From positions 47,213-111,212 of IMG/VR virus record IMGVR_UViG_3300028833_000006: a stretch of DNA of 64,000 nucleotides; one strand, written 5' to 3'. Numbering within the stretch: the stretch's first letter is position 1; the number at the start of each line of letters is the position of its first letter. This DNA comes from a virus (lineage: Duplodnaviria > Caudoviricetes). Positions 4,626 to 40,903 of this stretch are shown piece after piece. Under the pieces are notes generated by a model. It was not told the origin of the DNA. It saw only the letters and a program-made list of their open reading frames with translations, and searched no databases. The translations under genes and the position numbers were made by a program.

Positions 4626-4779
4626 TTGTCATTGTCCTCCTAACAATCTTTTATATCTGCTTTATTTGTAACTGCCCAGTCGCAGTTCTGGGCTGATTGC
4701 TACCTCATTTTACAGGTCTTTGGCTTGACCTCTATATAAATGCAATATAGACAAGGTTACATAACTAACCTATCTGTTG

Positions 4780-23402: not shown

Positions 23403-24449
23403 CTATTCCCAAATGAAAGTATACTTGAAAGGGTCTATATCACCCCTAAAAAATTTAGATTTTTTAATACTATAAGGGATATAGTGCTCCCACACCTCAT
23501 TGATATAGTATTTTGTTTCATCCTCTCGCTCAAGATTTCGCTTTAGATTATTGAAACAATATATATAATAACTCTCATTATATTCTTGTAAATCATTATC
23601 TGCCATATAGATATACTCCACACAGCACTTATAACACCTACCGCATCTATGTTTAGGTAACATAATACCATACTTCTGTAATACCCAATCATGCCAATAC
23701 TGACGTAGATTAGCCCTACCCAAACAACTGACTGACAAATCTAATAAATCCTTATCATAGCATACGGACTTAAGACTGTCCTTAACATCCTTTAGCACAA
23801 CCCCCATCTTAAACTTTGGTATAAATGACCGCATAATCTCGTTATAGATATCCCACATCTCCATGTCATCCCCACCACAAAATTCGAAATTGTCATAGTA
23901 CCAAGTACTTGATTTATAATTACCGATTGCCAAGCGTGTACCTACACCCTCACGAATACCATACTCCAATGCCCCATTCGCTATCATATAATTCTTCATG
24001 GGATGTTCAACATAATCATGATGACCAGATAATTTAATAGTATCTATGTACAACGGTATCTTTAGATAGTCTGCTATATCTTGAGCAATTAAGTATTCAT
24101 CTGACAATGCGGAATTAATGTGCCTCATATGATACAAATACACATTAAACCCCTTGGTCATATAATATTTAACTGTCGCTATACTATCTTTACCGCCACT
24201 AAATAGTACTATTATATTCTCTGCATTTCGCACAGTATTTAATTTAGGATACTCTCGGTCTTGATACGTCACATTTCCATGATGGTCTGCGTATAGTACA
24301 AAAGTATCATACAGTTCTTTAAACCTACTATCTAATACTGTCGGTACTAAAGACGGTTTCTCCTTACGCTCGGATAATAAAGAATACACCCTATCAAACT
24401 CATCAAAGATAGGGTGTATATGTGGTTGGTCATATTTTATTGTTTGCAT
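23403..24449 (-). CDS. QueC-like PP-loop ATPase
   Basis: LFSGGKDS PP-loop and SC...CGRCYKC zinc motif. Confidence 0.75.
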   Translation of the reverse strand: MQTIKYDQPHIHPIFDEFDRVYSLLSERKEKPSLVPTVLDSRFKELYDTFVLYADHHGNVTYQDREYPKLNTVRNAENIIVLFSGGKDSIATVKYYMTKGFNVYLYHMRHINSALSDEYLIAQDIADYLKIPLYIDTIKLSGHHDYVEHPMKNYMIANGALEYGIREGVGTRLAIGNYKSSTWYYDNFEFCGGDDMEMWDIYNEIMRSFIPKFKMGVVLKDVKDSLKSVCYDKDLLDLSVSCLGRANLRQYWHDWVLQKYGIMLPKHRCGRCYKCCVEYIYMADNDLQEYNESYYIYCFNNLKRNLEREDETKYYINEVWEHYIPYSIKKSKFFRGDIDPFKYTFIWE

Positions 24450-24452
24450 ATT

Positions 24453-24572
24453 CTACTTCTTATTCTTCTTAGGCTTAATCACCATCTTACCAAAATCATC
24501 TGCTACGAATCTTTTATCTGCTCTATCTTGCCCCTTTGTATTTGGTGCGTTTGCAGGTTTCTTCTTTGTCAT
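24453..24572 (-). CDS. 39-aa basic protein
   Basis: GGAGG RBS, own TTGACA promoter near 24625; MTKKKPANAP...KPKKNKK. Confidence 0.5.
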   Translation of the reverse strand: MTKKKPANAPNTKGQDRADKRFVADDFGKMVIKPKKNKK

Positions 24573-24623
24573 AATGTACCCTCCAAGTAATTACATTGTA
24601 TACTATGTTTACTTAAATGTCAA

Positions 24624-25361
24624 TTATTTTTTAGTAGTCTTGGCACGAATAATTAACTCATTATGGTCATTATCCCATTCAAGTTTTTTAATGTTTAGCC
24701 CAGACTTCCTATCAAATACTACCTCAGACTCTTGTCCTGTCGGACTAAATAAAGCCTTTGTGCCTTTAGTACCAACATATTCTATCCTAACTGGATGATG
24801 CCAATCCTTAAATGCTGAATCGCTTAATGACAGATTGTATGTCGCTGATTGGAATGTCTTATCATAATAAATTGCGTCATTATTCTCTAAGAAATTATTA
24901 ATTTTATCCATTCTCTTCTGCACAATATAGTGCAATACATCTGGGTCAACACTATTTAAATCTGGTGTTGCTAACCCAAATGACTTCAACATAGACAGTA
25001 ACCATTTACCAGTTGTTAACCGAACTACATTTATATCAGCATCAAGTGGCTTCATATTCTTATCCATAGTTGCCAAAGTCTTCTTCACTCGATTAAGTCT
25101 ACTCTCTTGGACTTCTGGACTTAATGCATTCCACTGTGGGTGTTGTGCCCTAATTGCATCATCCAATGGCACTCCGTTCACTTCATGCTCACGTATCGCC
25201 TTATTTAATCTCCAACTCTCTGATGTCTGAAAGTATCCGTACCAATTTGAATCACCGTCAAGAATTGCCTTATCCGCATCTGATATATCTGTACTCTTTG
25301 TGGCTACGTCCGAATACCCACCGCTATACTGTCTTCTAGAACCATATCCATACGAACCCAT
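24624..25361 (-). CDS. ADP-ribosyltransferase (VIP2-like), Met-Gly start
   Basis: LN..IR, INVVR (R), FQSAT (S), QESEVV (ExE); start MGSYG by RBS. Confidence 0.7.
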   Translation of the reverse strand: MGSYGYGSRRQYSGGYSDVATKSTDISDADKAILDGDSNWYGYFQTSESWRLNKAIREHEVNGVPLDDAIRAQHPQWNALSPEVQESRLNRVKKTLATMDKNMKPLDADINVVRLTTGKWLLSMLKSFGLATPDLNSVDPDVLHYIVQKRMDKINNFLENNDAIYYDKTFQSATYNLSLSDSAFKDWHHPVRIEYVGTKGTKALFSPTGQESEVVFDRKSGLNIKKLEWDNDHNELIIRAKTTKK

Positions 25362-25410
25362 AATCCATCTCCCAATAAGAAAGCACCCACAATCCGTTGG
25401 GTGTAGGTAC

Positions 25411-25557
25411 TCACTTTTTCTTCTTCTCCTTGTAACCAGACTTCTCAATAGCGTAACCTTGCTTTATGGCTTTCTGCTTTGCGCCCTTACCGCAATATAC
25501 TGTCTGATTACCCCACTGATAACAATCTTTCTTACCTTTTACTTTATGTACTGGCAT
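25411..25557 (-). CDS. 48-aa basic protein
   Basis: MPVHKVKG...YQWG...AKQKAIKQGYAI; GAGGTG RBS. Confidence 0.55.
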   Translation of the reverse strand: MPVHKVKGKKDCYQWGNQTVYCGKGAKQKAIKQGYAIEKSGYKEKKKK

Positions 25558-25695
25558 ATTTACACCTCGTAGTTAACTTAATTACAATCTATGTTAACTA
25601 TTTTATCATATAAGTTAAAAATTTCCAACACGAAAAATGTAGGCTAACATAACAAAATGGGCAACCACCCCATAAAGATGATTGCCCAACTCGGT

Positions 25696-25902
25696 TTAAT
25701 ACATCATGTCTAAGCAACTTGCTACTGCTTGCGGTGAATGACTTGCTGACACACCCTTTACGTATCCGTCATAGTCATCCTTGATATGCGCCTTAACGCT
25801 ATCAGTATTGAAATACTTCACCATCTCATCGGTGCTGTAACCGCACCCCATGAATGCCTTTCTTACCGCCTTTGTGTAATCCTCAAATGTCATCTTACTC
25901 AT
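25696..25902 (-). CDS. Small protein, candidate immunity partner of 25899..26654
   Basis: ATGA overlap with upstream effector; followed by terminator hairpin. Confidence 0.55.
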   Translation of the reverse strand: MSKMTFEDYTKAVRKAFMGCGYSTDEMVKYFNTDSVKAHIKDDYDGYVKGVSASHSPQAVASCLDMMY

Positions 25903-26654
25903 CTCTGTTCTCCTTTCTTCTCCTTTATTTGTCTATCACGATATGCATATGCATTATCATAACCGTCATCACCGACATATGGCTTTGTGTTCTTTAGGAA
26001 TGTATCTAAATCAGTATTCTTGACATTGCCTATACCAACATACTTATAAAATACAACTTCCTCTTCGCCACAGCCACTTTTATCCCAACCATCTGGTGCG
26101 TAATCCTTATTAAATGGTGTCCAACTAATCGGCTCAAATCCATTGGCTGTATAGAACTTATGGTTACCTGCGAAACTATCAAGTTTCCTACCACCCATCT
26201 TAACTGCTTGGGCTAATAAATCCTTACCACGGACTGTATTATCACCCTGTTTCTTACATACACTAATGATATCACCCTCGTCTGTCACGGCTACTGTAGA
26301 ACCACCTTTGGATGTCCAACACTTACTATTGTGTTCTTTGTAGTCATCTGCGGTATGAACATCTACTCGCCACTTATCCTCAACTGGTCTTGATTCCTTG
26401 GCACTTGTAATATCTTTGTGGAATGTTGTAGCATCTACTGACCTACCACTATCACTGTTTGACTTACCATTAAGCCTATCTCTTTCAGCCTTTGCCTTGG
26501 CTATCTGCTGTTCCTTGACATCCTCATTATGGTCTGCAACGCTACGATTATCACCAAATGCTTTTCGTATAGCGTCTGCTTTAGTCTCGCCTGCACCTAT
26601 CGGTATATGTTTACCATTAACGGTTATCCATTGCAAATCTTTACTATCTGCCAT
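25899..26654 (-). CDS. WxTxxGxH-tagged protein with GNAT-like acetyltransferase domain
   Basis: WITVNGKHIPI tag; G.DLL..AV..GG.KLD.F...FY..NGF. Confidence 0.65.
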   Translation of the reverse strand: MADSKDLQWITVNGKHIPIGAGETKADAIRKAFGDNRSVADHNEDVKEQQIAKAKAERDRLNGKSNSDSGRSVDATTFHKDITSAKESRPVEDKWRVDVHTADDYKEHNSKCWTSKGGSTVAVTDEGDIISVCKKQGDNTVRGKDLLAQAVKMGGRKLDSFAGNHKFYTANGFEPISWTPFNKDYAPDGWDKSGCGEEEVVFYKYVGIGNVKNTDLDTFLKNTKPYVGDDGYDNAYAYRDRQIKEKKGEQR

Positions 26655-26655
26655 A

Positions 26656-26835
26656 TCACACCTCTAATACTTCTGCTAAATCATCTTCACCAACTGCGTA
26701 TACCTCATCATTGTTTGCTTTAACACCCCACGCATCAAGTTCTCTATCATATCCCATTACTTCATATATCTCGCCTTTGGTATATGCCCAACTTGACTCG
26801 CCTAAATATCTTACTTTCTTTCCTGCTTCTAACAT
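26656..26835 (-). CDS. Small SH3-like protein, candidate immunity partner
   Basis: KVRYLGE...TKGEIYEV; directly behind 26846..27367. Confidence 0.55.
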   Translation of the reverse strand: MLEAGKKVRYLGESSWAYTKGEIYEVMGYDRELDAWGVKANNDEVYAVGEDDLAEVLEV

Positions 26836-26845
26836 TTTACCCTCC

Positions 26846-27367
26846 TTACTTACGTGTTTCAAGGTTTCTTATATGCTCTTTAATAAATGCTTCTCTGACT
26901 TTTTTATCTTTACCCTGTACCCAATGTACCTCACGATTTAAGGTTACTTTACCATTAGTTATTTGTGCCATTCCTGCACAATGTTGCCAATCTTCTGGTT
27001 TACCACCCCAACGCTTTGCGTACTTAGATGCATCTCTAAATTCTTTTGAGCATCCTTTTCCTGCAAACACATATACATTCTTTATAAATGTACCATTCTT
27101 AAATCTGTACCTCTGTTTAGTCCTTAGATTTAACACATCAGATGATGTATTAGCCTCACTCGCTGGGATATCTGGTAAGTATAATATCTTTGGAAGTGGT
27201 TTTCTGCTATCAGCCTCTTCCTTATTTCTCGCCATCTGCTTATTCTTTATCTCTTCATTCTTCCTAGCGATAGACTCATTTTTAATCTGAGATTGAGATT
27301 TGTAATTAGGGTCTAGTAGTATATGCTTACCATTTACTGTTACCCAACGCATTTCTTGGTTTGCCAT
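26846..27367 (-). CDS. WxTxxGxH-tagged protein with putative nuclease-toxin domain
   Basis: WVTVNGKHILL tag; VFAGKG...WGG...WQH..G...EVHW motif. Confidence 0.6.
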   Translation of the reverse strand: MANQEMRWVTVNGKHILLDPNYKSQSQIKNESIARKNEEIKNKQMARNKEEADSRKPLPKILYLPDIPASEANTSSDVLNLRTKQRYRFKNGTFIKNVYVFAGKGCSKEFRDASKYAKRWGGKPEDWQHCAGMAQITNGKVTLNREVHWVQGKDKKVREAFIKEHIRNLETRK

Positions 27368-27378
27368 ATATCACACCC

Positions 27379-28665
27379 CTACTTCTTCTTGGGATGCTCT
27401 TTATCCCACTGTGCTTTTCGCTTCTCAGCATAAGCATTGTATTCAAATATCTTATCAGGTGTATAATTGAATGACTCATCGTGCTCTGCACTCTGAAAAG
27501 TATTCCATCTACCTTGGTCTATAATAGATAACTTCTTGCCACCAGTCTGACTTGCTACCTTAGTTAACTTCCTACCCGTATTATCCCACAATGTAAAACT
27601 ATCATAAAGACTTGCTATCTCTGGCACTGCCTTTTGTGCTTTCCTATGTGCACCCATCAATACTTCTACAGGGACTAAACGGTTCATACCATAATCGTCA
27701 CCCTTACAGTATCTGTATATGGAATTTTCCCTTACCGTAGGTTCGTCTGCAAAAATATAGTTTTGGTGACAAGTATAACCCTTATCACGACACGACTTCA
27801 ATCTTCTCTCGACACTCTTAGATTTTGTTGCTGTACCATCGTACATTACGGGATAGTTGTTATCTATAGCCATTGACCATACTTGGTCGGCTAATGCGGA
27901 ACTTTCATTGTGGTAGTATCCTGCATTGAACAAATCTTCTATCTTGGCATCAGGATTAGCTGCCTTAAGCGACTTAAACTCATCGTCATACATACCATTA
28001 GCCAAATCGTGTCTCCACAGCATGTACTTCAATCTGTCTGCGTCTATAACCAAATGTTGTTTATCACTGCCATAGAATTTACTAAACCCACTACCTTCAA
28101 GTGACATTGCGCTTAATTGCCCCTTACCAGCAGCACCACCGCCACCAGTAAACAACGCTTTCTTCTCCTCACCGGGCGCATAAGGCTTATATGTAACTGG
28201 ATGGTCTTCTCCATTTACGGGTATCTTATTAAAATAATCCTCAAGAACTTCTCTATGAATATCTGCTCTCTCTTGTGTGAGATTTCCATTCTTATCAAGT
28301 GCTCTATACATAGAGTCGCCATTAGGGAACTTATCATTAGGTTGTGTAGTAGTAATCTCATCATACTCACCTAACTTATAATCTTTACCCTTAAATGACA
28401 TCACGCCATTCTTGTTAGTTACTTTAGTACCTTGTGTGAGATTATCACGATATTTCTGCTCATCTTGCAATCTCTTCGCCTCGGATTGGGCTTTGGCTAT
28501 ATCAGACTGTTGCTTATCAACTGCCTTTGCGCCACGCTTACTGGCCTTTGCTTGTGACTGTTCCTTAACCCAACGCTTTACAGCATCATCTTTAGATTCA
28601 CCGTCATATAAGGGTACATGATTACCATTTATGGTTATCCAATTTTTCGGTTCTTTATTCGCCAT
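27379..28665 (-). CDS. WxTxxGxH-tagged zeta-toxin-like P-loop kinase
   Basis: WITINGNHVPL tag; GGGGAAGKG, IDAD..K, H.ESS.LA, YDGT, R.VP, WDN. Confidence 0.75.
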   Translation of the reverse strand: MANKEPKNWITINGNHVPLYDGESKDDAVKRWVKEQSQAKASKRGAKAVDKQQSDIAKAQSEAKRLQDEQKYRDNLTQGTKVTNKNGVMSFKGKDYKLGEYDEITTTQPNDKFPNGDSMYRALDKNGNLTQERADIHREVLEDYFNKIPVNGEDHPVTYKPYAPGEEKKALFTGGGGAAGKGQLSAMSLEGSGFSKFYGSDKQHLVIDADRLKYMLWRHDLANGMYDDEFKSLKAANPDAKIEDLFNAGYYHNESSALADQVWSMAIDNNYPVMYDGTATKSKSVERRLKSCRDKGYTCHQNYIFADEPTVRENSIYRYCKGDDYGMNRLVPVEVLMGAHRKAQKAVPEIASLYDSFTLWDNTGRKLTKVASQTGGKKLSIIDQGRWNTFQSAEHDESFNYTPDKIFEYNAYAEKRKAQWDKEHPKKK

Positions 28666-28677
28666 ACTAGTACCCCC

Positions 28678-28935
28678 TTACCACGGTATATTATGCTCTG
28701 CTCTAGACGCATAATCAAGTAATCTAAGTTTATACAACTCGTAATCAGCCTTATTCGCAAAATTATTTGCGCCCTTGATTGGTCTCCGATTGACAATATC
28801 ACCATATGCAATTGCGTCTACCTTGTTGTACTGCGGATTGTCATAATCACAATCATAATCAGCAATAACCTTTGGGTCATAGGTGACATTCTTGTAATAG
28901 GCAATCTCTTTTGGTGTCAAATTTTTATTTGCCAT
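28678..28935 (-). CDS. Small protein, candidate antitoxin of the zeta-like gene
   Basis: AGGAGG RBS, own early promoter, directly upstream of zeta-like ORF. Confidence 0.55.
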   Translation of the reverse strand: MANKNLTPKEIAYYKNVTYDPKVIADYDCDYDNPQYNKVDAIAYGDIVNRRPIKGANNFANKADYELYKLRLLDYASRAEHNIPW

Positions 28936-28965
28936 CTTCTTATCCTCCTTTCCTATTCTCTTTCC

Positions 28966-29024
28966 ATAATAAGTATATACCAATATGTCAAGAGTGTCAA
29001 TAGGAATTTTGAAAAATTTTTCAA
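28966..29024 (-). promoter_or_regulatory. Repeated early promoter
   Basis: Palindrome + TTGACA-17-TATACT. Confidence 0.8.
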
Positions 29025-29194
29025 TATTTACTTTAAATCATCTTCTTCTGGGTCTTCCCACCACGGTATTTGTATCATATAATATACCCAATAGTTTACA
29101 TAATAAAACAACCTATCCATATTATACTGAATAGGTTGCCTAATGTCTACTCTTCTTCACTAGTTTCCATTTTTCTATACGCAAAAAATGTAGG

Positions 29195-29386
29195 CTACGC
29201 TCTCCGTGCAATTGTGATATCGTTACTAATTTTTAAACTTGTCGCCCTTTCCAAATCTTCTGCTCTGACTACTATCATATTTGCCATTGGTCTTGATTCT
29301 ATTGGATATATACCATTCTTATTAAGTTTCTTAATCTGCTTTGATATAACTGAATAGTTCTGCATTGTCTTCATATTATATTCCAC
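29195..29386 (-). CDS. Hypothetical protein
   Basis: ORF packing. Confidence 0.45.
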   Translation of the reverse strand: MEYNMKTMQNYSVISKQIKKLNKNGIYPIESRPMANMIVVRAEDLERATSLKISNDITIARRA

Positions 29387-29588
29387 TAATCTCCCTCACA
29401 TAACAATCATCTAGTTTTGCGAAATCAGACCTACCTGCACCTATCCGAACATACAACTTACCGTCATCCTTATTCAAATATACTCTATTCCACTCCTCGT
29501 CATCATCAAGCCACACTATAACCTTTGTAATTACAAATCCGTCTGTTCTTGTCATACCAATTCTCCTTTCTACTCTGCCCACACACAT
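29376..29588 (-). CDS. Hypothetical protein
   Basis: RBS before MTRTD. Confidence 0.5.
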   Translation of the reverse strand: MCVGRVERRIGMTRTDGFVITKVIVWLDDDEEWNRVYLNKDDGKLYVRIGAGRSDFAKLDDCYVREISGI

Positions 29589-29869
29589 CTCTCACTGTAC
29601 GGAACATATCTCTTTGCTACCTTAAACCACTTCTTATTATCAAGCGAAACCTCTAAATATTCACATACCATTGTGACATCATAAGTTGAGCACATTCTGT
29701 AATCTCTCTTAATATAATTATCGCCCAAATCCTTGACGCAACGAAGATATCTGTAAAAACCGTCCTTGATATAATACACGATATCCTTAATTAAAGGTTC
29801 TTCACCCTTAATAATCTCTTCCCAACCCATTGCTTTCATATTATTTACGGATAATTCTGCTCTAGTCAT
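29570..29869 (-). CDS. Hypothetical protein
   Basis: AAAGGAG RBS behind cassette promoter. Confidence 0.6.
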   Translation of the reverse strand: MTRAELSVNNMKAMGWEEIIKGEEPLIKDIVYYIKDGFYRYLRCVKDLGDNYIKRDYRMCSTYDVTMVCEYLEVSLDNKKWFKVAKRYVPYSERCVWAE

Positions 29870-29886
29870 ATTGGTTATCTCCTTTC

Positions 29887-29949
29887 CTTACAATACCATT
29901 ATAGGTGTATACTTATATATTGTCAAGTAATTTTTGAAAAATTTTTCAA
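29887..29949 (-). promoter_or_regulatory. Repeated early promoter
   Basis: Palindrome + TTGACA-17-TATAAT + GTAAGG. Confidence 0.85.
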
Positions 29950-30025
29950 ATGACTTACACTTGAATCATATATGATACATTTAATACAACAAAAAGGACA
30001 GCCAAAACTGACTGTCCAATTTAAA

Positions 30026-30682
30026 TCATATTAACTTAGTTTGGTGTGGTTTCTTTTTGTCTACAACCGTCATATGCCGTAATTTACCTGCACAACTCCT
30101 AGAACAAGTTTTAGTCGGCTCATACTTGTTTATACTAAACTCCTTACCGCAAATGACACATACCCTAGTAACATTATCCTTACCAACATGTCTCCTATAA
30201 TAAGATTTACAAGCATTGCTACAAAAAGTATTCTTCTTACCTGTATTGCACGCAATAAACTCTTTGCCACAATTAGTGCATGTACATGTTATGGGTGCAT
30301 TTAAAATACCCCGCTCTATTAACCGCTTTGCGTTCTCTCTACTAACGGCTCTACCCTCTTCTGACCTATGCCACGCACTCGCTCTACTTCTATACCTGGC
30401 TAATGTTTCAATATCCTTTTGTAATCTTTCTTCGGACTTATGTGTTCCATGATATGTAGAATGCGTCTCATTTGATAAACATTCTAAATTAGATATATCA
30501 TTATTGCCACGGTTCTCATCCCTATGGTGTATTACACAACCTTTTGGAATCACACCCACTTCATGTTCCCACACATATCTATGCATCAAAACCGTATGAC
30601 CATCAAGTTTTGTAATAAAATATCCATCAGACCGCCTAGTAAATTTAATACCATTGTAAAATTGTACCCTACTCTCTGCCAT
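30026..30682 (-). CDS. Free-standing HNH homing endonuclease with zinc-finger repeats
   Basis: MHRYVW...IHHRDENRGNN.ISNL...H; two CxxCGKEF...CS..C repeats. Confidence 0.85.
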   Translation of the reverse strand: MAESRVQFYNGIKFTRRSDGYFITKLDGHTVLMHRYVWEHEVGVIPKGCVIHHRDENRGNNDISNLECLSNETHSTYHGTHKSEERLQKDIETLARYRSRASAWHRSEEGRAVSRENAKRLIERGILNAPITCTCTNCGKEFIACNTGKKNTFCSNACKSYYRRHVGKDNVTRVCVICGKEFSINKYEPTKTCSRSCAGKLRHMTVVDKKKPHQTKLI

Positions 30683-30760
30683 ATCATACCTCCTATATAT
30701 AGGAATAGTATAACAAGAATAGGCAGAAAAGTAAATATCCGTATCGCACAATATCCGCAA

Positions 30761-32756
30761 TTAGTTACCTTTTCTACTTGCGTATTTGTCAATACCGTAC
30801 CTTACCGCATCAATACTGTGGTCGTTCCCATCTGGATATGCACTAATGAAATTACCTTCCTTGTCTGTCTCATACTCATAGTTAGTAAATTCTGCATAGG
30901 TGTAGGGGCACTTTCGTCTATCTATATAAATGTGATTAAGTCCCTGTAACCACTTCATAGAATAAGTACGACTCTCTGGCCCCTTTACAGCACCACGGAT
31001 AAATGCGCCATACGCCTTAAAGTCTGCTATTGACTTCGGCTCTGCGGAATCTGCGATAAGTTGCTCATCCTTCCTAATGAGTTTTTTCTCCTCATATAAC
31101 TCATCAAAAATTTCCTTATTCCTCTTCATATAGGTGTTGTATTCTCTAAAGATGTACAAATCTAAATGCTTAGCATCAAAATGCATTTTAACAAATCTAG
31201 TAGGGTCTTTAGCGAACATATTTAACCCTTATCTACCCTCGGTTTCCCGATATTTATTAGGGGATTAGACTATCTCTTAATATTATGGTTTACATAATAT
31301 TCAGTGCACTTCGGACTGTGCTAATCTCAGCCCTACTTCCTTACGGAATAGTCGTTACACCTTTCCTTTCGGACTTGGCACGGTATTGTCATAGGCTGTT
31401 GCCCTTAGAGTTTCACCGTTAGCCGTATCTTCATATGACACCGCTTTTGCTTGCGTTCACACTGTTTTATACTGGAGCTACGCTACCCAACCCCAGTCCA
31501 ATCCATTATAAATCTTGTCAAATGTCTGCCACATAGGTACTTGTCTGTCACCCATCTCTACCAGTTGCTCCATGTCCAAGTCTTCTGCATTAGGGAATAC
31601 ATCTCCACCTGTACCAATGGCTACACCCATGTATTCATGGATATAGGCTCTCTCATTCCTCTGCCTTAACTCCTCTGCCTCTTCCACAAACTGCATCCCT
31701 AGCCAGTCTATAGGGACATCAAAGTAAGTATTACTTGTTACTAATGTATTCTCTTGCAACTCTGCCTGCTCTGCATATTGATTAGCCCAATTAAGTTTAC
31801 TGATAGGAGGGTTGAATGTTCTAAAATCCCAAAAGTTTTGACCACCACGCATTGTAGACTGTAATACCTTACGTATCTCTGCCTCGCCTGCGAACTGGTC
31901 AAGTTCCTCACTTGGAGCATTGCGTATATAGCGTAAAGTTTTGTTATACGCTCCTATATTACTATAGGGTTCGGACTATATCATACTGTATATAACTGTT
32001 ACCATTACATACAGCCCTTGCGCTTCGCTTTCGCTACTCTACTTACTTCTTCACATAAGGATTTCTCTTATGCTATGCTTTCGATAGTCTCTGAGCCTTC
32101 CTATCACATGGTTTGTGCATATTGCACAATGGATTTCTGAAATCGCAAAATCAGTTTGTATTTCCCTAGGGGAGATTTTTTATACCCCAAGGATACCCAA
32201 TTCCGCAAACCCTTGATTTTACTGCATTTGTAGACTTATGTGCAAATTGCACAATAAAATGATAGGCTTGGTTGCTGATTGTCCTATATGCGTATAGGAT
32301 TTCCAGCAGTTCACAAGGTTTTACATGGTCTGAGGTCTAGTTAAACCATGTTATCCCGATGTAGCCAAATGACAGTTTGATTGACTTAACCTTATTTGGG
32401 TCATCTAACCCCATAAAGATTATCTTCTGGCCAGTCGGAATATATGTTATAGGTGTTGAATAAGTTTTTGGAATCTTAAACAGACTGTCTACCCCTAACT
32501 GATATATCCCCCATACTACTTGGGCAAATATACTGTTCTGTATTGTATTTCCTACCTTGCGGAAACATACAGCGTGTACAGTGGGATTTGACATAATGAG
32601 TAGCGGAATACAAATACCACCGTAAAAAGAAGACTTTGTACTTCCTCTACCACCTTTACCAACATAATGTGTATGCTTATGTTGTAATATATCTTGTAGA
32701 ATAGGTTTATACATAGGTATAATACATCTATCTAAAGATATACTCATATCACTCAT
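30761..32756 (-). CDS. terL: Terminase large subunit, three exons (32756-32344, 31910-31490, 31216-30761; 429 aa)
   Basis: GGRGSTKS Walker A; splicing restores WFEELDQF (Walker B) and GLDWGFAKDP; TFNPP and DHSIDAVRY motifs. Confidence 0.9.
31217..31489 (-). mobile_element. Group I intron 2 in terL (273 nt, no ORF)
   Basis: P1 ACUGGGGU/GCUCCAGU with U-G at splice site; GACUA/UAGUC P7; terminal G at 31217. Confidence 0.9.
31911..32343 (-). mobile_element. Group I intron 1 in terL (433 nt, no ORF)
   Basis: P1 ACAUGGUU/GACCAUGU; P10 CCUCA/UGAGG; UGCUGG and AAUCAGCA P/Q; CAGAGACUA and AUAUAGUCC R/S; terminal G at 31911. Confidence 0.92.
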
Positions 32757-32981
32757 TCTCTTACCTCCTTTTATTTTACTCTGTGTCAATATTCAATTTT
32801 CAAGGTGCACATCATGGTGGTGTAGCCACTCGCTATTATCCACCCACCACTCAACTTATTGTTATTGTACTGTCCAATTTATCACTCTGTCAAATATTTG
32901 TACACAATGGGTACAAAAAAGGCTTGTTTTATACGCAAGCCTTATATTTTCCCTATAGGAACTTTTTATCTATGTATAGTC

Positions 32982-33500
32982 TTATGTGAGGTCAAGATTG
33001 CCCATTTCATCAGCATTTTCAGTTGGTGTAGCCACTATGTCCTTGACCAATTTCATCCCACTCTCTGCACTCTCACTACTAGCCCAATCTAATGTTATCT
33101 TTATCTCTGGTGTCTTATTGCTCTCTAACTTATTAGGTATGTCTATAAGCCTTTTTGCCAACTCTTGTGCCGCCTTTGTGCGCTCTGCTAAACTCGCTTC
33201 AAGTCCGAATTGGTCTGTGATTTCGCCCCTTGCCACTGAACTGAAATATTCGAGCACTTCTTCTGCTGTCATAATGCTAGATTTCCTTATTTCTTGCATT
33301 CTGTAAGCAATTTCATTGGCGATATAGTCTTTTTTCAGCAGTGCGTTTGCTTGCTGTGCAGGTGTCCTACTCTTATATCCTGCATTAATTGCACTTTGAG
33401 AAGCATTACTTGTTTCTATATATTCTGATATAAACTTATCTTCTCTTGGCGTTAAGGGATGTCCTGTATATGTTGTTAATTTTGTATTTACTTTTGGCAT
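32982..33500 (-). CDS. terS: Terminase small subunit
   Basis: LT.RE.KF..EY....NA.QSAI.AGY...A..LL, EVL...S..ARG, R.KAA.ELAK. Confidence 0.85.
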   Translation of the reverse strand: MPKVNTKLTTYTGHPLTPREDKFISEYIETSNASQSAINAGYKSRTPAQQANALLKKDYIANEIAYRMQEIRKSSIMTAEEVLEYFSSVARGEITDQFGLEASLAERTKAAQELAKRLIDIPNKLESNKTPEIKITLDWASSESAESGMKLVKDIVATPTENADEMGNLDLT

Positions 33501-33571
33501 ACTTATTATATACCTCTTTCTCTAATCTCTTATTCCGCCCGACTTTTGGGGATTTTTATATGACATGTATG

Positions 33572-33754
33572 TCATTTATTTACTTCTTGTACTAATCCTT
33601 TTGTTATCCAACTTAATGGTACTGCTTTTTGGTATCCCTTTATTGAATTTTGCCCCCGATTTTCCGTGAATTTTACTGCTATTCTAGGGTCTGCTTTTCC
33701 TAATTCTGTTAGTATAAATTTTGTATTTTCTGTTGCATGTTTATAAGTTACCAT
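33572..33754 (-). CDS. Hypothetical protein
   Basis: AGGAG RBS; stop inside TGACA-N4-TGTCA. Confidence 0.5.
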   Translation of the reverse strand: MVTYKHATENTKFILTELGKADPRIAVKFTENRGQNSIKGYQKAVPLSWITKGLVQEVNK

Positions 33755-33931
33755 TTGGATTTAGTACTCCTAGATTATTTGAAATATTTTTCATATTTCA
33801 CTTTTTCCGCAAAACATATTTTTTGACATTAGTGTCATATTGTCTTGTTTTTGTTTACATAAAACATTATATCACAAAAAGGTAAAAGAAAAAAGAGATA
33901 TTTTTATCTCTTCTCTCTTATGACACATATG

Positions 33932-34462
33932 TCATTTTACTATTCTTGTATGTACATACCACTTAGCTGGTTCTGTTTTATATTCATCTTCATCATTAAA
34001 TCTTCCTGCACTATCTACGGGTTGATATTCTAATATATATTGTACTCCGTTATTACTATCACTTGGATTATTATATTGTTCTGCCTCACCCGCTTTTACG
34101 CTTGCCCTTAATGCATCTGCTTCGCCCTTATCATATTTACCTAATGCCTTTGCTAAATCACTCAATGCACCTTTGAGTGTTGGCTTATTACTATATCCGT
34201 CTATATCTACAAACTTATCCGTAATTATCGCTGTACCAAATACAAGTATATTGCTTGGTATATCCTCTTCTTTTCTCGTAGTACCCTTACTATCATTAAT
34301 GTCTTTGATATTTTTAGTACTTTGCTCTATCTGCTTTGCTTTTAAGTCTTCATTATTTTTGGCTACTTGTCTATTGTATGCGTCTTGGGTAGTTTCACCT
34401 TTATATATTGGCACATGTACCCCTTTTATTGTGACCCATTTTTCTATTTCTCGCTCTACCAT
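33932..34462 (-). CDS. WxTxxGxH-tagged protein, unknown C-terminal domain
   Basis: WVTIKGVHVPI tag + coiled coil. Confidence 0.7.
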   Translation of the reverse strand: MVEREIEKWVTIKGVHVPIYKGETTQDAYNRQVAKNNEDLKAKQIEQSTKNIKDINDSKGTTRKEEDIPSNILVFGTAIITDKFVDIDGYSNKPTLKGALSDLAKALGKYDKGEADALRASVKAGEAEQYNNPSDSNNGVQYILEYQPVDSAGRFNDEDEYKTEPAKWYVHTRIVK

Positions 34463-34486
34463 AATTTAACCTTTCTGACACATATG

Positions 34487-35266
34487 TCATTTTCTTTTAT
34501 TTGGTACTAAATATTCTTGTTCTGCTGTTGTTTGATAACTTCCCCATGTATCTATAGGTCTTATTTTTATCTCTGTTATTTTATCGCCAAACTTTTCCGC
34601 TATTTTTCTATCTGGTGTATAAGCACTGAATATATCATTTGCTACTTGTTTTTGTCCGTATTCACCTCTATACATTGTTATTGGTGTTGTTAACCAATCT
34701 TTGAATGATAACGGTTTTTCTTTACTGCCCCGAATTTTTTGTATTTCAATATCGCCCAAGTAATTGTGATATGCTATATTAAGCCCTGCATTTAATGTAC
34801 CTTTATTGGACAGTATATAGTCTACTAATTTTGGTTTGATATCACTATTCGCACTTCTAAACCAACCACTATGTGTTTGCTCTGGAATACTCTCTCTTAT
34901 CTTGGATACTGCATCTTCTATTTTCATCTCATGCACATCCTTAAGTTCCTCTTCCGCTCTCTTATCTCGCCACAACTGCTTTACCATATCCATATGGTGT
35001 GTTCTGCCATATTCTTTGAATTGTGGATTTGACATATTATCTTTTATGAATGCCTTAAAATCAGTATTATCTTTTACTGTTGGTATATCTGATTTACCGT
35101 TTAACTTATCCGCTTGCTCTTTGGCTTTTGCGATTTGTTTTTCTTTGGTATCTTCATTCTTTTCTGCTATATATCTATTTACTGCTTTGTCTTTTGATTC
35201 ACCGTCCATTATTGGTATATGTTGACCGTTTACAGTAATCCATTGTTTTACTTCTCTTTCTGCCAT
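34487..35266 (-). CDS. WxTxxGxH-tagged ADP-ribosyltransferase-like protein
   Basis: WITVNGQHIPI tag; MYRG, SAYT....A..F, EQEYLV (R-S-E). Confidence 0.7.
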   Translation of the reverse strand: MAEREVKQWITVNGQHIPIMDGESKDKAVNRYIAEKNEDTKEKQIAKAKEQADKLNGKSDIPTVKDNTDFKAFIKDNMSNPQFKEYGRTHHMDMVKQLWRDKRAEEELKDVHEMKIEDAVSKIRESIPEQTHSGWFRSANSDIKPKLVDYILSNKGTLNAGLNIAYHNYLGDIEIQKIRGSKEKPLSFKDWLTTPITMYRGEYGQKQVANDIFSAYTPDRKIAEKFGDKITEIKIRPIDTWGSYQTTAEQEYLVPNKRK

Positions 35267-35349
35267 TTATAATACTCCATAAATTCAGTATTTATCAGCG
35301 TTTCACGGATTTATGTCCGTGAGTGACAAACATATGACATGTATGTCAT

Positions 35350-35790
35350 TTATTTTGACTTGTCTTTCTTATTACGGAAATACCACTCTTTGCCCTCGTC
35401 CGAGTTAGCAAATGCCTTTGCCTCTTTCAATGTCGAAAATTTTTGTCTCTCCTTAAGCCATGCTTGGTTCTTTATACCTAACTCATATCCGCTCTCTTTC
35501 CACGATGTGTTTGGTGAATTATGTGTGTATTTATCAATCTTAAATAATTCACTCTCATATCTTTTATTATTAATAGACGAATGAACCAACTTAAATATCT
35601 GTGGTGCATACTCACTATTATTCATCCGATTTACTTGGTCGGCACGGTCTTTTATTTGCTGTTCTTTTATATCTTCATTGGCTTTAGCAACTGACCTATT
35701 ATATGCGTCTTGTCTGCTCTCTCCCTCAAAGATTGGAACATGTTTTCCATTTACCGTTATCCAATCCTTTACCTCTCTTTGCTGTACCAT
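35350..35790 (-). CDS. WxTxxGxH-tagged protein, unknown C-terminal domain
   Basis: WITVNGKHVPI tag; FSTLKEAK motif. Confidence 0.7.
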   Translation of the reverse strand: MVQQREVKDWITVNGKHVPIFEGESRQDAYNRSVAKANEDIKEQQIKDRADQVNRMNNSEYAPQIFKLVHSSINNKRYESELFKIDKYTHNSPNTSWKESGYELGIKNQAWLKERQKFSTLKEAKAFANSDEGKEWYFRNKKDKSK

Positions 35791-35815
35791 AATATCCTCC
35801 TAATTGACACCTATG

Positions 35816-35956
35816 TCACTTTTTCTGTAATCTCTCATAATATGCCTTAACCTTTTTCATATCAGGTAAGTTCTCTGTCGGTCGTTTATAGTTTTTTGGC
35901 ATATCTATCATCGAATCTGGCTCTTTGTATGTTTTTGGTTTCTGCTCAATTATCAT
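35816..35956 (-). CDS. Small protein, candidate partner of the peptidase
   Basis: GGGGG RBS directly after peptidase stop. Confidence 0.45.
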   Translation of the reverse strand: MIIEQKPKTYKEPDSMIDMPKNYKRPTENLPDMKKVKAYYERLQKK

Positions 35957-35969
35957 ACTTTTACCCCCT

Positions 35970-37037
35970 TTATTTAGAATACAATCGCTCATAAAATTCT
36001 TTAACACCATTTGTATCAGTAGACGTTACATTACTATACAATTGATTTGTAAGTCTCATAACCTCTTGTGCCAATATATTTGCACTAGTACCATAGGCTT
36101 TATAATTTATATAGGATTCTGCAAACACCTCAGTATTAAAATCTTTTCCGTGTATATCCTCGGTATTGTAATGATTCGTAAACACATAGCCGCTCAATTG
36201 GTGAACTAATTGTCCCACTGTCGGTTTACTACTAAACCATCCGTACTTCTTCCAATTTTTCTGAACATTATTTATTGCCAAGGGAACTATGATACCACTT
36301 ATCATAGGATTACTTGCAGGATTAGTATTAAAATCAGCACAAGAATACAATTTACCGTCTAATTTAAAACACTTGACGCTTGTGTCACAATCTGGTATAT
36401 CTGATACAACCTCATCAACCTTTAACTTTCGCCCAAGTGCCCTACCATATGCCTCTGCCCACTTCTCATTACGCATTGTTGTGGGTTCTTTATACACTAA
36501 CGGTGCGTGATTCATTAACACATTATACATCTGCATATCCACATTATGTGCTAATTCATGTGCTACAATGCTATCTGCAAAATCACCGTTTCCTGCCAAA
36601 TACCCCTTGTCACAAAGACCTTCGATGTGCTCTTGCGTAAACTCATAATCATTAAATAAATCACTACGCAATTGCAACATACCTAGTCCATTCATAGCAC
36701 CAAGCGTGCCACCCATTTTAGATTTATCTTCAATCTGTATATAATCTATCTCTTTAACCTCTGGATAATCATTATGTATATCTTGTGCTACCCTTGTAAT
36801 ATCATCAACAAATCTTTTATCCTTGATTGTACCAAGTATCTTAAAATTATCTTTATTTACCTTGGTCGGATTTAACTGTTCTGCTTGCTCTTTAGCCTTT
36901 GCTATGTCACGCTCTTTTTTGCTTTCATTCTGCATAGCAACACTACGATTAAATGCGTCTTGTACAGATTCACCGTCATATATCGGTACGTGATTCCCGT
37001 TTATCGTTACCCAATTTTTTACTTCTCTATCAGCCAT
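35970..37037 (-). CDS. WxTxxGxH-tagged zincin metallopeptidase
   Basis: WVTINGNHVPI tag; HELAH and distal EVFAES. Confidence 0.75.
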   Translation of the reverse strand: MADREVKNWVTINGNHVPIYDGESVQDAFNRSVAMQNESKKERDIAKAKEQAEQLNPTKVNKDNFKILGTIKDKRFVDDITRVAQDIHNDYPEVKEIDYIQIEDKSKMGGTLGAMNGLGMLQLRSDLFNDYEFTQEHIEGLCDKGYLAGNGDFADSIVAHELAHNVDMQMYNVLMNHAPLVYKEPTTMRNEKWAEAYGRALGRKLKVDEVVSDIPDCDTSVKCFKLDGKLYSCADFNTNPASNPMISGIIVPLAINNVQKNWKKYGWFSSKPTVGQLVHQLSGYVFTNHYNTEDIHGKDFNTEVFAESYINYKAYGTSANILAQEVMRLTNQLYSNVTSTDTNGVKEFYERLYSK

Positions 37038-37082
37038 AATATATCTCCAATATGACAAGTCTGTCATATATTGATTATACCA

Positions 37083-37113
37083 AAAAAGCGATAATATTAC
37101 TACTATCGCTTTT
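37083..37113 (-). terminator. Intrinsic terminator
   Basis: AAAAGCGATA/TATCGCTTTT stem with U-run. Confidence 0.6.
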
Positions 37114-37143
37114 CCGTGTATGCCAGTGTATTTACAAAGAAGA

Positions 37144-37332
37144 TTATTTATAATCTTCTAATGTACCTGCTCCGTCAACTATTTCTTGTAAATCTTTATC
37201 AAGTACAAAATCATCATCCTCTTCTGCTATCAACTCGGCAGCCACCTCTTCACCAAAAACCTCTATGAGTTTCTTGTGACAGAAATCAATTCTATTCTCC
37301 ACATCCCTATCTAATGATACCGCTCTTGCCAT
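37144..37332 (-). CDS. Small acidic protein, candidate partner of the JAB protein
   Basis: AGGAGG RBS; directly downstream of 37358..38053. Confidence 0.55.
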   Translation of the reverse strand: MARAVSLDRDVENRIDFCHKKLIEVFGEEVAAELIAEEDDDFVLDKDLQEIVDGAGTLEDYK

Positions 37333-37357
37333 TTGTTATACCTCCTTTATATCACCA

Positions 37358-38053
37358 TTATTTTAAATTTTTACCTGCCTTGGTTGCAACATACTTAAAT
37401 CCAATTTTCTCAAGGTTTTTTGAATATGTTCTATCAAACATACCTACTGAATACTGTCTAGCATATGCATATGCTTGCTTGGGTGTCATAGGCGGTCTAT
37501 ATGTAACCTTACCAGTTGAGCCATCCACCAACTTAACCATACCCTTATGTGGGCCAGACTTAAGTGGTGTTGTTGCCGCTTTAAGTGCTCTGTCATACGA
37601 CTTATTAAAGTTTTTCTCAAGAATACTTTTCTTTGAATTTACCCACTTTGCTAATTTCTCTCTATCAGCATTCTCTGACGCAACTATAGAATACAACTGA
37701 CCTTGTTTTGTAGTTGCTCTCAATTCTTTCCAATTTGACTGTGCAAATGTCTTTAAATCTGTAAGTGATAGTGTACCACCTAATGCATTATTTGGATGTA
37801 AATGAGTAACACTTGCACCCTCGGTCTCTTTAGCATTTAAGATTTTAGGGTCAATGTTAACAGAATGCCTATCACCCTCATATGCTTGCATAAAATTACC
37901 GTCCTTATCAAATATAGCAAGTGTTTCTACACGACCTTGACCAAAGCCCTTTTCCTTGGTCTCATCTTTTGCTCTCAATTCCCACTCATCTATCGTAGGT
38001 TTACCAGTCACAACCAAATGTTTAACATTTCCACCAACTACTATCCCACCCAT
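37358..38053 (-). CDS. JAB/MPN-like protein, Met-Gly start
   Basis: E.LAIFD..G, THLHP......S..D motif. Confidence 0.7.
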   Translation of the reverse strand: MGGIVVGGNVKHLVVTGKPTIDEWELRAKDETKEKGFGQGRVETLAIFDKDGNFMQAYEGDRHSVNIDPKILNAKETEGASVTHLHPNNALGGTLSLTDLKTFAQSNWKELRATTKQGQLYSIVASENADREKLAKWVNSKKSILEKNFNKSYDRALKAATTPLKSGPHKGMVKLVDGSTGKVTYRPPMTPKQAYAYARQYSVGMFDRTYSKNLEKIGFKYVATKAGKNLK

Positions 38054-38079
38054 AATTACCTCTCAATCTGACACTACTG

Positions 38080-38856
38080 TCACTTCTTTGCATTAACCTT
38101 TTTACTTATTTTTTCCTTAGATATTGTTGATTTATTATCCTTACTTATTGCTTGATTCTTTGCAACACCTAACATATAAGCATTTACATGTATTCTTCCA
38201 CCAGAATCTTGTCTGACAGAATTTGGGTCGTATCTGAATACTGAATTATTATTCACAAGTACTTCATTTTCGCCATTATTAGATGATATGGGGTCAACGT
38301 ATGCACAATATCCTTTACTCTTAGGAATTGCTAAATGTATAATGAGACCACTACTTGATACACCCATACCTCTATCACCTGCACAAAAAGATAAAGCACC
38401 ATCATTTTGCAATACACCGCCACTAGCGTTTAAAAAATCCTTAACTTCATCAACTGTCATTTTTACACCCTTACGCTTACCAAACGGTCTAAAATCTGTC
38501 TCTCTTGTAACATTGATACCTTGCTTTAACTCAAACTTATTTATGGCATCATGCAAATTTTCAACTATTTGCCTATACTGATTAGACTCGGACAGATTTT
38601 CAAGTGGTGTGTTAAACATCATCTTATTTAACTCTCTATATAAACTGCCAGTATATCTCTCTACTGCATACAACTCATCGGAACTTAATCCGCTATTATT
38701 CTCATCATTTATCCACACGTTCTGATTTGAGTTTCTTGAGTTAGAAAACCAATCCACTGCCTCATCATAACTCTCAAAATCCTTAAAATCTCTAGATTGT
38801 GCCTTTAATTGTTGATAAGTTCCACCACTATTATTGGTTATACCATAACTACCCAT
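38080..38856 (-). CDS. ADP-ribosyltransferase (VIP2-like), Met-Gly start
   Basis: YT...Y..LN, I.V.R, GALS, GENEVLV; start MGSYG by RBS. Confidence 0.8.
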   Translation of the reverse strand: MGSYGITNNSGGTYQQLKAQSRDFKDFESYDEAVDWFSNSRNSNQNVWINDENNSGLSSDELYAVERYTGSLYRELNKMMFNTPLENLSESNQYRQIVENLHDAINKFELKQGINVTRETDFRPFGKRKGVKMTVDEVKDFLNASGGVLQNDGALSFCAGDRGMGVSSSGLIIHLAIPKSKGYCAYVDPISSNNGENEVLVNNNSVFRYDPNSVRQDSGGRIHVNAYMLGVAKNQAISKDNKSTISKEKISKKVNAKK

Positions 38857-38872: not shown

Positions 38873-39016
38873 TCACTTAAATTTTCCAGACTTATTTTCC
38901 CACTGTATCTTATTAACATCTACTGGAACTGCCTTGCCCATAGAACCCCACCTTGCTTGACTCTTTGCTTTAGGTGTTGTTTTCTTCTTTGCTGTAGTGG
39001 TTTTTGTATTTGCCAT
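38873..39016 (-). CDS. 47-aa basic protein
   Basis: AAGGAG RBS; MANTKTTTAKKK. Confidence 0.5.
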   Translation of the reverse strand: MANTKTTTAKKKTTPKAKSQARWGSMGKAVPVDVNKIQWENKSGKFK

Positions 39017-40680: not shown

Positions 40681-40903
40681 CTATATTCAACTCTGTGTTG
40701 TCCATGATATTCAACAACAACTCCCTATATCCACTCAATAACATATTTGCTTTACACCAATCTAAGTTTGGTATCCGCTCCATGTTCTCTTGCTTTATCT
40801 TTTCAGATACTTCATTAATATCTAATATGGTCAACATAGCATCTGTTGCTGTCATATACACCTCACATCCAATTCTGTCTAATATCCAAAAGCCACATAT
40901 CAA
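40652..40903 (-). CDS. Hypothetical protein
   Basis: Between clamp-loader genes; probable start MTATD. Confidence 0.45.
   Translation of the reverse strand: MICGFWILDRIGCEVYMTATDAMLTILDINEVSEKIKQENMERIPNLDWCKANMLLSGYRELLLNIMDNTELNIGGNNGRCNS

Follow-up and report, generated by a model that had tools for sequence, protein, structure and literature searches.

A QueC-like phage gene whose presence co-varies with a short Met-Gly leader on unrelated effector-like proteins

The DNA analysed here is a stretch of 64 kb from a virus of the class Caudoviricetes (the window), which comprises bases 47213-111212 of IMG/VR record IMGVR_UViG_3300028833_000006, a complete genome of 111,212 bp with direct terminal repeats (DTR). 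The gene under study, Q, encodes a QueC-like protein, and genomes are termed Q+ or Q- according to whether they carry it. The window also encodes two ADP-ribosyltransferases (ART1 and ART2) and a JAB-like protein. All three begin with Met-Gly, and modification of these N-termini by Q had been proposed in an earlier note on this DNA. All four open reading frames (ORFs) were found on the minus strand where that note had placed them (Table 1). We report that in related phages the pentapeptide M-G-[SA]-x-G (the tag), at the N-terminus of unrelated effector-like proteins, accompanies Q, and we give about an even chance to the reading that Q modifies the N-terminal glycines of the tagged proteins, as a ligase like Cap9 and QatC that acts on phage effectors.

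Genes run on the minus strand throughout the window, at a GC content of ~36%. In order of transcription, the clamp-loader genes are followed by a gene for a 112-aa protein and a small basic ORF, then by ART2, the JAB-like gene and four proteins with a leader termed WxT. Next come terS, terL, which is split by a group I intron, and an HNH endonuclease, followed by three further WxT proteins, one of them a zeta-toxin-like kinase, then by a small ORF and ART1. After a consensus promoter and a basic ORF of 39 aa comes Q, and the series closes with four small ORFs and a radical SAM gene, the portal gene lying further on. Q does lie just downstream of ART1, as had been noted, but the two do not form one operon, with the candidate promoter (24623..24595) and the 39-aa ORF between them. 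As the stop codon of this ORF precedes the ATG of Q by only 3 nt, the two are probably translationally coupled; in the relative G009, a similar 46-aa basic ORF lies directly upstream of Q. Lysine-rich ORFs of 39-48 aa with a strong ribosome-binding site (RBS) precede each ART gene as well as Q, and the G009 ORF (16388..16528) is also lysine-rich; they may encode small basic DNA-binding proteins, internal proteins or leader peptides.

Table 1. Coordinates of Q, of the candidate effectors and of other features, in window numbering.
Feature	Position	Strand	Remarks
Q, QueC-family PP-loop ATP-pyrophosphatase, 348 aa	23403..24449	-	N-terminal beta/alpha extension (residues 1-75), QueC-like core, C-terminal three-helix extension
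39-aa lysine-rich ORF, strong RBS	24453..24572	-	read from sequence
Candidate sigma-70-type promoter, TTGACA-17 nt-TACAAT	24595..24623	-	between ART1 stop and small ORF + Q; consensus match only, from the DNA letters
ART1, R-S-ExE ADP-ribosyltransferase, 245 aa	24624..25361	-	N-terminus MGSYGYGS, then Gly/Ser/Tyr-rich tail; PF03496 E 1.7e-4; RBS GGGAGA
ART2, R-S-ExE ADP-ribosyltransferase, 258 aa	38080..38856	-	N-terminus MGSYGITN; PF03496 58 bits; RBS AGGTGA
JAB/MPN+-like protein, 231 aa	37358..38053	-	N-terminus MGGIVVGG; motif invariant in alignment A7; RBS GAGAGGT
SPL/PA0069-like radical SAM protein, 374 aa	20832..21956	-	NCBIfam rSAM_PA0069 E 2e-10
Clamp-loader genes	41717..42751, 40863..41720, 39712..40680	-	
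Proteins with WxT-type leader	25899..37067	-	
Lysine-rich ORFs ahead of the ART genes	25410..25556, 38884..39015	-	strong RBS
terL, three pieces	32337..32789, 31478..31852, 30761..31219	-	region 30026..32789
Group I intron in terL	31952..32362		Rfam, 54 bits
HNH endonuclease ORF	30026..30760	-	abuts last terL piece
Second SPL/PA0069-like radical SAM gene	53007..53939	-	47 bits to PF04055
674-aa open frame	61186..63084	-	two PF01555 DNA-methylase domains; far from Q

The label QueC-like is weak by sequence. The matches of Q to Pfam QueC (PF06508; E 0.006, 16.6 bits versus a cut-off of 22) and to TIGR00364 (11.8 bits versus 150) stay below threshold, the top NCBIfam match is TtuA, and when a 23-sequence profile was compared with the PDB, only residues ~58-139, the PP-loop region, aligned. 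What upholds the label is the fold search, in which the five best structural matches belong to the group of QueC, Cap9 and QatC and all other PP-loop enzymes score <=10.6 (Q being nearer to the QueC family than to the nucleic-acid-acting TtuA, ThiI, MnmA and TilS), together with the PADLOC QueC model, the name of which is used for an accessory protein of the cyclic-oligonucleotide-based antiphage signalling system (CBASS), and which matches residues 75-187 with E 6e-12. Run on the four proteins, PADLOC returned only 'QueC' for Q, with no QatC match at E <= 1. Sequence identity to QueC, Cap9 and QatC amounts to 10-18%.

Among 15 sequences, of which the most distant have 20% identity, there is no variation at S84, G85, G86 and D88 of the pyrophosphate-binding loop SGGKDS (residues 84-89), nor in the C-terminal four-Cys motif C242...C269xxC272xxC275, a predicted metal site at the position of the Zn site of the QueC family. 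Other motifs were mapped onto Cap9 and QueC by hand, by offset from the PP-loop and not by structural alignment. Placed in this way, HxN112(x)5E118 falls at Y/FxQ(x)5E of Cap9, HPMK152N153 at RN and Y178 at the stacking Tyr; N112, E118, K152-N153 and the four cysteines are invariant in the family. Compared with the canonical QueC signature, by offset only, Q has Asn for Gln, Lys for Arg and Ser/Thr-Ser for Asp-Cys. In E. coli QueC, YxQxHxxE and YPDC are essential, with VPxRN also part of the catalytic signature (PMC13329287). The core is flanked by a beta-alpha-beta-alpha-beta extension at the N-terminus (75 aa) and by three helices at the C-terminus (60 aa), and the model of Q aligns with QatC over model residues 3-348 (260-274 residues aligned, root-mean-square deviation 4.5 Å), so that its predicted architecture may resemble that of QatC. 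A complex predicted for Q (A1, with ATP and Zn) and residues 2-245 of ART1 (A2) obtained a score of 0.00 in both runs, which were made without controls.

At least 141 metagenomic members of the Q family exist, none of them named, and a precomputed match to PF06508 is given for 3 among the 120 listed of these 141. The family is almost exclusively viral: prokaryotic genomes, sampled at one per species for 185,579 species, contained two matches only, both on contigs of metagenome-assembled genomes (MAGs), and the only match in INPHARED was Staphylococcus phage Alsa_1 (21% identity). One homolog of Q (P0001, 88% identity) and one of ART1 (P0126, 75%) have an identical 'longest contig' value of 5,449 bp, which suggests that they lie on the same contig.

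Genes for TGT/DpdA, FolE and QueE were not found in the whole genome, and for QueD there was only a sub-threshold PTPS match (E 0.008), so that the absence of folE, queD, queE and dpdA first remarked on for the window holds for the complete genome. A role of Q in making preQ0 for DNA, which the earlier note had discounted, is unlikely for this reason. Nor do queD or queE, DpdA/TGT or FolE stand beside Q in any of 44 viral loci. Both radical SAM genes of the genome are SPL/PA0069/Rv2578c-like, and the one adjacent to Q, considered as a phage QueE that supplies 7-carboxy-7-deazaguanine (CDG), was rejected as such on this ground.

The Met-Gly starts of ART1, ART2 and the JAB-like protein all lie behind a Shine-Dalgarno sequence at proper spacing, which supports them as the true starts; that of ART1 is 7 nt upstream of its ATG, and a longer, TTG-initiated ORF has no such site. 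The common MGSYG of the two ARTs was confirmed. With 21.5 bits, ART1 remains just under the cut-off of 23.4 for ADPrib_exo_Tox (PF03496), a Pfam match that relatives of it do have, and its R114, S172-A-T174 and E211-S-E213 are invariant (alignment A2); ART2 passes, with R118 and E196-N-E198 invariant (alignment A3). Family N-termini read MG[SAG]Y in six of seven members for ART1 (MSSY in the other), and M1, G2 and G5 are invariant in the homologs of ART2 (n = 4, down to 34% identity). Of ten divergent homologs of the two ARTs, nine retain MG[SAG], and the ~10 residues behind it are variable. In the JAB-like protein, E43, H84xH86P, G92-G93-T94, S96 and D99 are invariant in five homologs, forming the MPN+ motif E...HxHP...GGTxSxxD; Pfam, NCBIfam and PADLOC gave no match, so that the JAB assignment is borne out by the motif but not by Pfam. 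Its homologs in Q-carrying relatives begin with MGSSG or MGSRG, and in Dorea phage DO134P1, the sole INPHARED match, the domain forms the C-terminal end of the post-portal protein. ART2 had no match in INPHARED; scans of viral contigs with the single ART1 and ART2 proteins and with the ART2 alignment gave none either, and the ART1 alignment retrieved three loci only. Within the genome, 7 of 178 predicted genes start with Met-Gly, three of them being those of the ARTs and the JAB-like protein (a post hoc count).

The Met-Gly end is not peculiar to the two ARTs; it is a polymorphic leader in general use across many effector families. When 14 Q-carrying genomes were scanned uniformly, 38 genes with an RBS were found to begin with M-G-[SA]-x-G, distributed over 24 unrelated BLAST families. 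The fourth residue is characteristic of each genome, and the variants MGSTG/MGSSG, MGSRG, MGATG and MGSVG occur on non-homologous neighbours of ART homologs. Tagged families with a Pfam match are ARTs, a papain-fold glutamine deamidase and ART-PolyVal; the tag is also found on a JAB/MPN+ family and on a conserved protein of ~150 aa encoded upstream of terS. The tag is followed by flexible tails enriched in Gly, Ser and Thr, and the genes lie upstream of terS or between terL and the portal gene, with Q among them in G001, G003, G008 and the window. Its codons vary, with GGA, GGT, GGC and GGG for Gly and both AGY and TCN for Ser, even between the two ARTs of the window, and upstream the genes have only a generic Shine-Dalgarno sequence in common. 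Since the Gly/Ser codons vary and the upstream DNA differs, conservation of the tag acts at the protein level; a DNA-level cassette junction was rejected on the synonymous-codon variation. The ART-like tagged proteins of loci L057, L058 and L059 also contain an internal conserved sequence, MGQ[TS]G[DN]EAG, ~35-50 residues after the tag.

For the comparison with Q-lacking phages, a terL profile retrieved 80 relatives, and 26 larger contigs were tested, all without Q by profile A5 and 17 of them >=90% complete. The tag is present in 14/14 Q-carrying genomes, and the complete genome G032, found via a tagged gene rather than via Q, also has Q as the fifteenth. Among the Q-lacking relatives, an MG[SA]xG gene within 9 kb of terL was found in 0/26 (MGG[GR]G in four), and in the Q-lacking genomes fetched whole (>=93% complete) such a gene was found anywhere in 0/10. 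Fisher's exact test gives p = 4e-11 for the 26 relatives and p = 5e-7 for the 10 whole genomes, both ignoring relatedness, and the honest unit of evidence is not this p but the number of changes on the tree: Q+ and Q- genomes are interleaved on the terL tree, where well-supported branches force at least four changes of Q presence, and the tag follows Q. In this respect comparative genomics supports the functional link between the QueC-like gene and Met-Gly N-termini that the earlier note had drawn, including the co-occurrence in related phages that it had named as a check.

That Q+ and Q- represent two different genome types was rejected, since terL, the clamp loader and synteny are common to both; in the Q- genomes the clamp-loader genes are the same, at 47-52% identity. 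In L052/G004, G013, G014 and G032, the Q cassette (Q and its methylase or radical SAM partner) has been inserted cleanly between the small clamp-loader subunit, clampL2, and the delta-like gene, which abut or overlap at this site in Q-lacking relatives (L234-L243). In an all-against-all proteome profile of 10 Q+ versus 10 Q- genomes, the most Q+-specific families were Q itself (8 versus 0 as clustered; all 10 Q+ by construction), the radical SAM protein (6 versus 0) and the methylase (6 versus 0), and no protease or other candidate 'reader' showed the Q+ pattern.

The WxT-type leader, W[IV]T[IV]NGxH[IV]P, which has 35 aa and is unrelated to the tag, served as a control: it is present in both Q+ and Q- genomes (Q-lacking G042, G043 and G051) and does not follow Q. 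A glutamine deamidase cargo that begins with MGSRGGGGG in the Q+ genome G001 has a homolog with a WxT-type leader in the Q- genome G043 (L171, 4903..6210), in the same slot downstream of the 112-aa gene. The two leaders look interchangeable, since WxT in Q- relatives carries cargo that is MG-tagged elsewhere.

Cap9 modifies Gly2 of CD-NTases that begin with M(G/S)G(G/S)GG (bioRxiv 10.1101/2025.04.06.647259). This enzyme of type IV CBASS (PDB 9NTO) is an ATP-dependent ligase by which CDG is attached to Gly2 in a Gly/Ser-tailed protein, to which the MG[SA]xG proteins with Gly/Ser/Thr tails in Q+ genomes would correspond as putative substrates; Q resembles it in the PADLOC match and in the SxGxDS, RN-like and stacking-Tyr positions. 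Differences are its minimal size of ~185 aa versus 348 aa and two extensions in Q, its base-reading Asp, which is not conserved in Q, and its substrate, a signalling nucleotidyltransferase rather than putative phage effectors. The operons differ as well: Cap9 is encoded with a CD-NTase, the TGT-like Cap10 and the OGG-like Cap11, whereas an ART gene, small ORFs and a radical SAM gene are found beside Q, and the phage genome has no TGT-family/Cap10 gene (CD-NTase and Cap11 were not searched for).

QatC of the QatABCD system (PDB 9Y01/9Y02; PMC13279940, PMC13639016) has in common with Q a Zn site in which a long spacer precedes CGxCxxC, the loss of the canonical Asp of YPDC, the absence of deazaguanine pathway genes alongside, and a proposed substrate, the Gly2 amine of a flexible-tailed partner (QatB begins with MGTS), that is like the putative targets of Q. 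In contrast to QatC, which belongs to a bacterial defence island, Q is phage-encoded, keeps N/E and KN residues resembling those of QueC and Cap9, and has a DNA methylase or a radical SAM gene as constant neighbour; QatC acts on one dedicated partner through a large interface, whereas the putative substrates of Q are many and unrelated, with only a pentapeptide in common. QatA, QatB and QatD were not seen among the identified neighbours of Q or in the PADLOC scan of the four proteins. Canonical QueC differs from Q in that Q stays under the Pfam and TIGR00364 cut-offs, has, by offset, an apparently altered signature and also ~130 extra residues, and lacks a queD/queE context, in a phage without DpdA.

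An N-terminal pentapeptide with a flexible tail on otherwise unrelated enzymes is what an active site, not a docking domain, recognises. As the tag suits an active site, and the only gene set that tracks it contains an enzyme of which the two nearest characterised relatives join a carboxylated deazaguanine to just such Gly2 ends, we take modification of Gly2 as the best explanation. Q would then be a phage-encoded ATP-dependent ligase of the QueC family with a Cap9/QatC-like fold, acting on the free alpha-amine of Gly2 that removal of the initiator Met would expose. Its substrates would be polymorphic phage effectors with an M-G-[SA]-x-G leader and a flexible Gly/Ser/Thr-rich tail, in the window both ADP-ribosyltransferases and, probably, the protein with the JAB/MPN+ motif. 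If Q works as Cap9 and QatC do, it would activate a small molecule with a carboxyl group, most likely host-made CDG, by adenylation and transfer it to the Gly2 amine as an amide. The mark would address or load effectors for delivery with the virion, rather than serve to make modified DNA.

Addressing for virion delivery is the most likely purpose of the tag because of the terminase-portal position of the tagged genes, their MuF/polyvalent-type cargo and the WxT-leader swap. Toxin delivery in phages by MuF-fused proteins and 'polyvalent proteins' was reportedly described by Jamet et al. and Iyer et al. in 2017. As in those systems, ARTs, a papain-fold glutamine deamidase and JAB cargo stand here beside terminase and portal genes and vary between related phages, and the JAB-like domain at the C-terminus of the Dorea phage post-portal protein adds to the likeness. 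The Pfam families concerned are ART-PolyVal and Gln_amidase. Domains that the tagged genes of the terminase-portal module encode are, in other phages, fused as cargo to MuF or to polyvalent proteins; there, the cargo is joined to MuF or a large scaffold domain, whereas here it stands alone and carries a five-residue peptide that co-varies with an enzyme gene.

Several observations weigh against Gly2 modification by Q. Gene starts come from an in-house, simple RBS-based caller. Within the protein, Y178-x-[ST]-S181 stands in place of YxDC, so that the Asp that reads deazaguanine in Cap9 and QueC is not kept; QatC likewise has no base-reading Asp, yet a peptide from the N-terminus of QatB that carried NDG was detected (PMC13639016). 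The complete, Q-lacking genome G044 (the contig of L174) encodes two MGGRG-initiated proteins (17695.., 59629..), one of them homologous to a tagged glutamine deamidase-like protein, which could mean that Q was lost recently, or that a different enzyme serves a variant of the tag. On contig G030 there is a tagged gene, and Q is missing from the part covered; being only 75% complete, the contig is uninformative. The co-variation of the tag, moreover, cannot separate Q from its cassette partner: the most constant neighbour of Q is a DNA N6/N4-type methyltransferase (~32/44 loci) or an SPL-like radical SAM gene, and the pairing spans phages of 33-66% GC including one of 329 kb. The distant Q-carrying phages examined (G018, G019, G021, G023, G026) have no tag. 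Because the pairing persists in such phages, the ancestral role of the family may concern DNA, and because Q-like genes below ~35% identity occur without any tag, a tag-linked function, if real, may be a specialisation of a rumen-phage clade.

Adjacency to an ART gene, which had been read as a meaningful pairing, is not conserved: ARTs are no conserved neighbours in the 44 viral loci, and a homolog of ART1 occurs in none of them. The methyltransferase beside Q (PF01555) has ~313 aa, or 430-600 aa when fused to ParB_N, and lies on the same strand, usually immediately next to Q. The radical SAM protein, of ~375 aa, is found in five loci (L001, L002, L004, L005, L052) and in the window; in the relatives its start overlaps the stop of Q, and the radical SAM gene of the window is likely the cassette partner of Q. 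In Alsa_1 (L136, OR354820.1, Twortvirinae), an annotated DNA methyltransferase is followed at 2663..4702 by three short 'hypothetical' ORFs that together match Q residues 100-304 at 21% identity and, judged from this match, may be a decayed copy of the methylase-Q cassette. In some distant phages (L028, 5024..5854; L029, L038, L040 and L044, cluster c36), an extra gene follows the methylase-Q pair, either for a protein that by eye has the look of a pyridoxal phosphate (PLP)-dependent 1-aminocyclopropane-1-carboxylate (ACC) deaminase or D-cysteine desulfhydrase, or for a ~170-aa protein with the motif VCFSCGNA; such a gene may be a hint that the PP-loop enzyme is supplied by a donor of sulfur or amine.

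This neighbourhood is why we retain the possible, if rather doubtful, alternative that Q and the methyltransferase or radical SAM protein are the two halves of a cassette for modification of DNA or nucleotides, the tag correlation being indirect. Q may then adenylate a base carbonyl or carboxylate on DNA, or make a small-molecule precursor; for example, DNA-directed effectors may be tolerated only where the DNA of the phage itself is modified, with the tag read by something else. It is favoured by the same-strand, often overlapping pairing in nearly all 44 loci, down to 20% identity of Q and in degenerate form even in Alsa_1, by the tagless distant phages, by the PLP-enzyme-like gene (by eye) after Q in the L028 and c36 loci, by the radical SAM proteins being of the DNA-acting SPL/PA0069 group, and by the Q+-specific phyletic profile common to Q and both partners. 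Such a cassette leaves unexplained, however, why a five-residue N-terminal peptide under protein-level selection occurs on 24 unrelated families only in Q-carrying genomes, and why cargo switches its leader in a Q-lacking phage. The fold of Q, moreover, matches QueC, Cap9 and QatC ahead of TtuA, ThiI, MnmA and TilS, the methylases of the window genome (~61186..63084) do not lie beside Q, and we know of no QueC-family PP-loop enzyme that acts on DNA. Improbable to our minds is a mechanism in which both readings meet: Q would cap Gly2 with a deazapurine-like base, and a partner, the base-flipping DNA methylase-like or SPL-like radical SAM protein, would dock the conjugate on phage DNA or insert it covalently (a 'nucleobase zip-code'). 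Effectors would be dragged into the next host with the genome, and a five-residue N-terminal peptide would suffice to enrol any protein as virion cargo. If true, this single mechanism would account at once for the tag and its QueC-like enzyme, for the DNA enzyme that is the constant neighbour, and for the terminase/portal position.

The likeness of Q to the defence enzymes Cap9 and QatC, which use the same chemistry on MGGS/MGTS N-termini, and the almost exclusively viral distribution of its family would also fit a counter-defence protein that drains or diverts host CDG or mis-modifies the Gly N-termini of the type IV CBASS CD-NTase or QatB of the host, with the tagged proteins as decoys or incidental. 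We regard this as distinctly improbable, as the co-variation is with phage-encoded enzymes (ARTs, deamidase, JAB) and not with inert decoys, and the methylase/radical SAM partner is left unexplained. An ordinary preQ0 synthase, which would boost host queuosine or supply 7-deazaguanine for phage DNA, is very improbable: it would account for the QueC fold, the Zn motif and the weak Pfam QueC match, but not for scores under both the Pfam and NCBIfam cut-offs, the apparently altered YxQxHxxE and YPDC signatures, the extensions at both ends or the missing pathway genes, in the genome as well as beside Q. Least credible of all is that the Met-Gly start is due to chance or to a DNA-level junction (RBS plus first codons) used for gene swapping; although only three genes of the window have it, there is free variation in the codons of G2, S3 and G5, with AGY as well as TCN for Ser, the upstream regions contain a generic Shine-Dalgarno sequence and no long identical junction, and the pentapeptide is absent from the 10 whole Q-lacking genomes of the same group.

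Elsewhere in the window, the gene for the large terminase is in three pieces, with no Rfam match in the second gap, and the HNH endonuclease ORF adjoins the last piece. A ~55-bp stretch near 31224..31286 has 90-94% identity to terminase genes of Herelleviridae infecting Staphylococcus, Enterococcus and Listeria, and was the sole INPHARED match of a 20-kb DNA query. The second SPL/PA0069-like radical SAM gene and a frame with two DNA-methylase domains are given in Table 1.

The joining of nucleobases to the N-termini of proteins was first described in 2025-26, for two defence systems of bacteria with one enzyme per dedicated partner, and the papers searched contain no description of phage-encoded protein deazaguanylation. 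Here, the same enzyme family is found in a virus, and co-variation links it to a minimal, portable pentapeptide that dozens of unrelated toxin-like proteins carry. Even if Q belongs to a DNA-modification cassette, many phages have the pair of a methylase and a QueC-like protein, and we found no publication that characterises it. If the link between Q and the tag is enzymatic, the chemistry would be used on both sides of the conflict between phage and host, and phages would have a new answer to the question of how stand-alone effectors are addressed without MuF or polyvalent scaffolds; it would also constitute a natural multi-substrate system with a short, defined tag, useful for studying the role of the mark and possibly as a protein-tagging tool.

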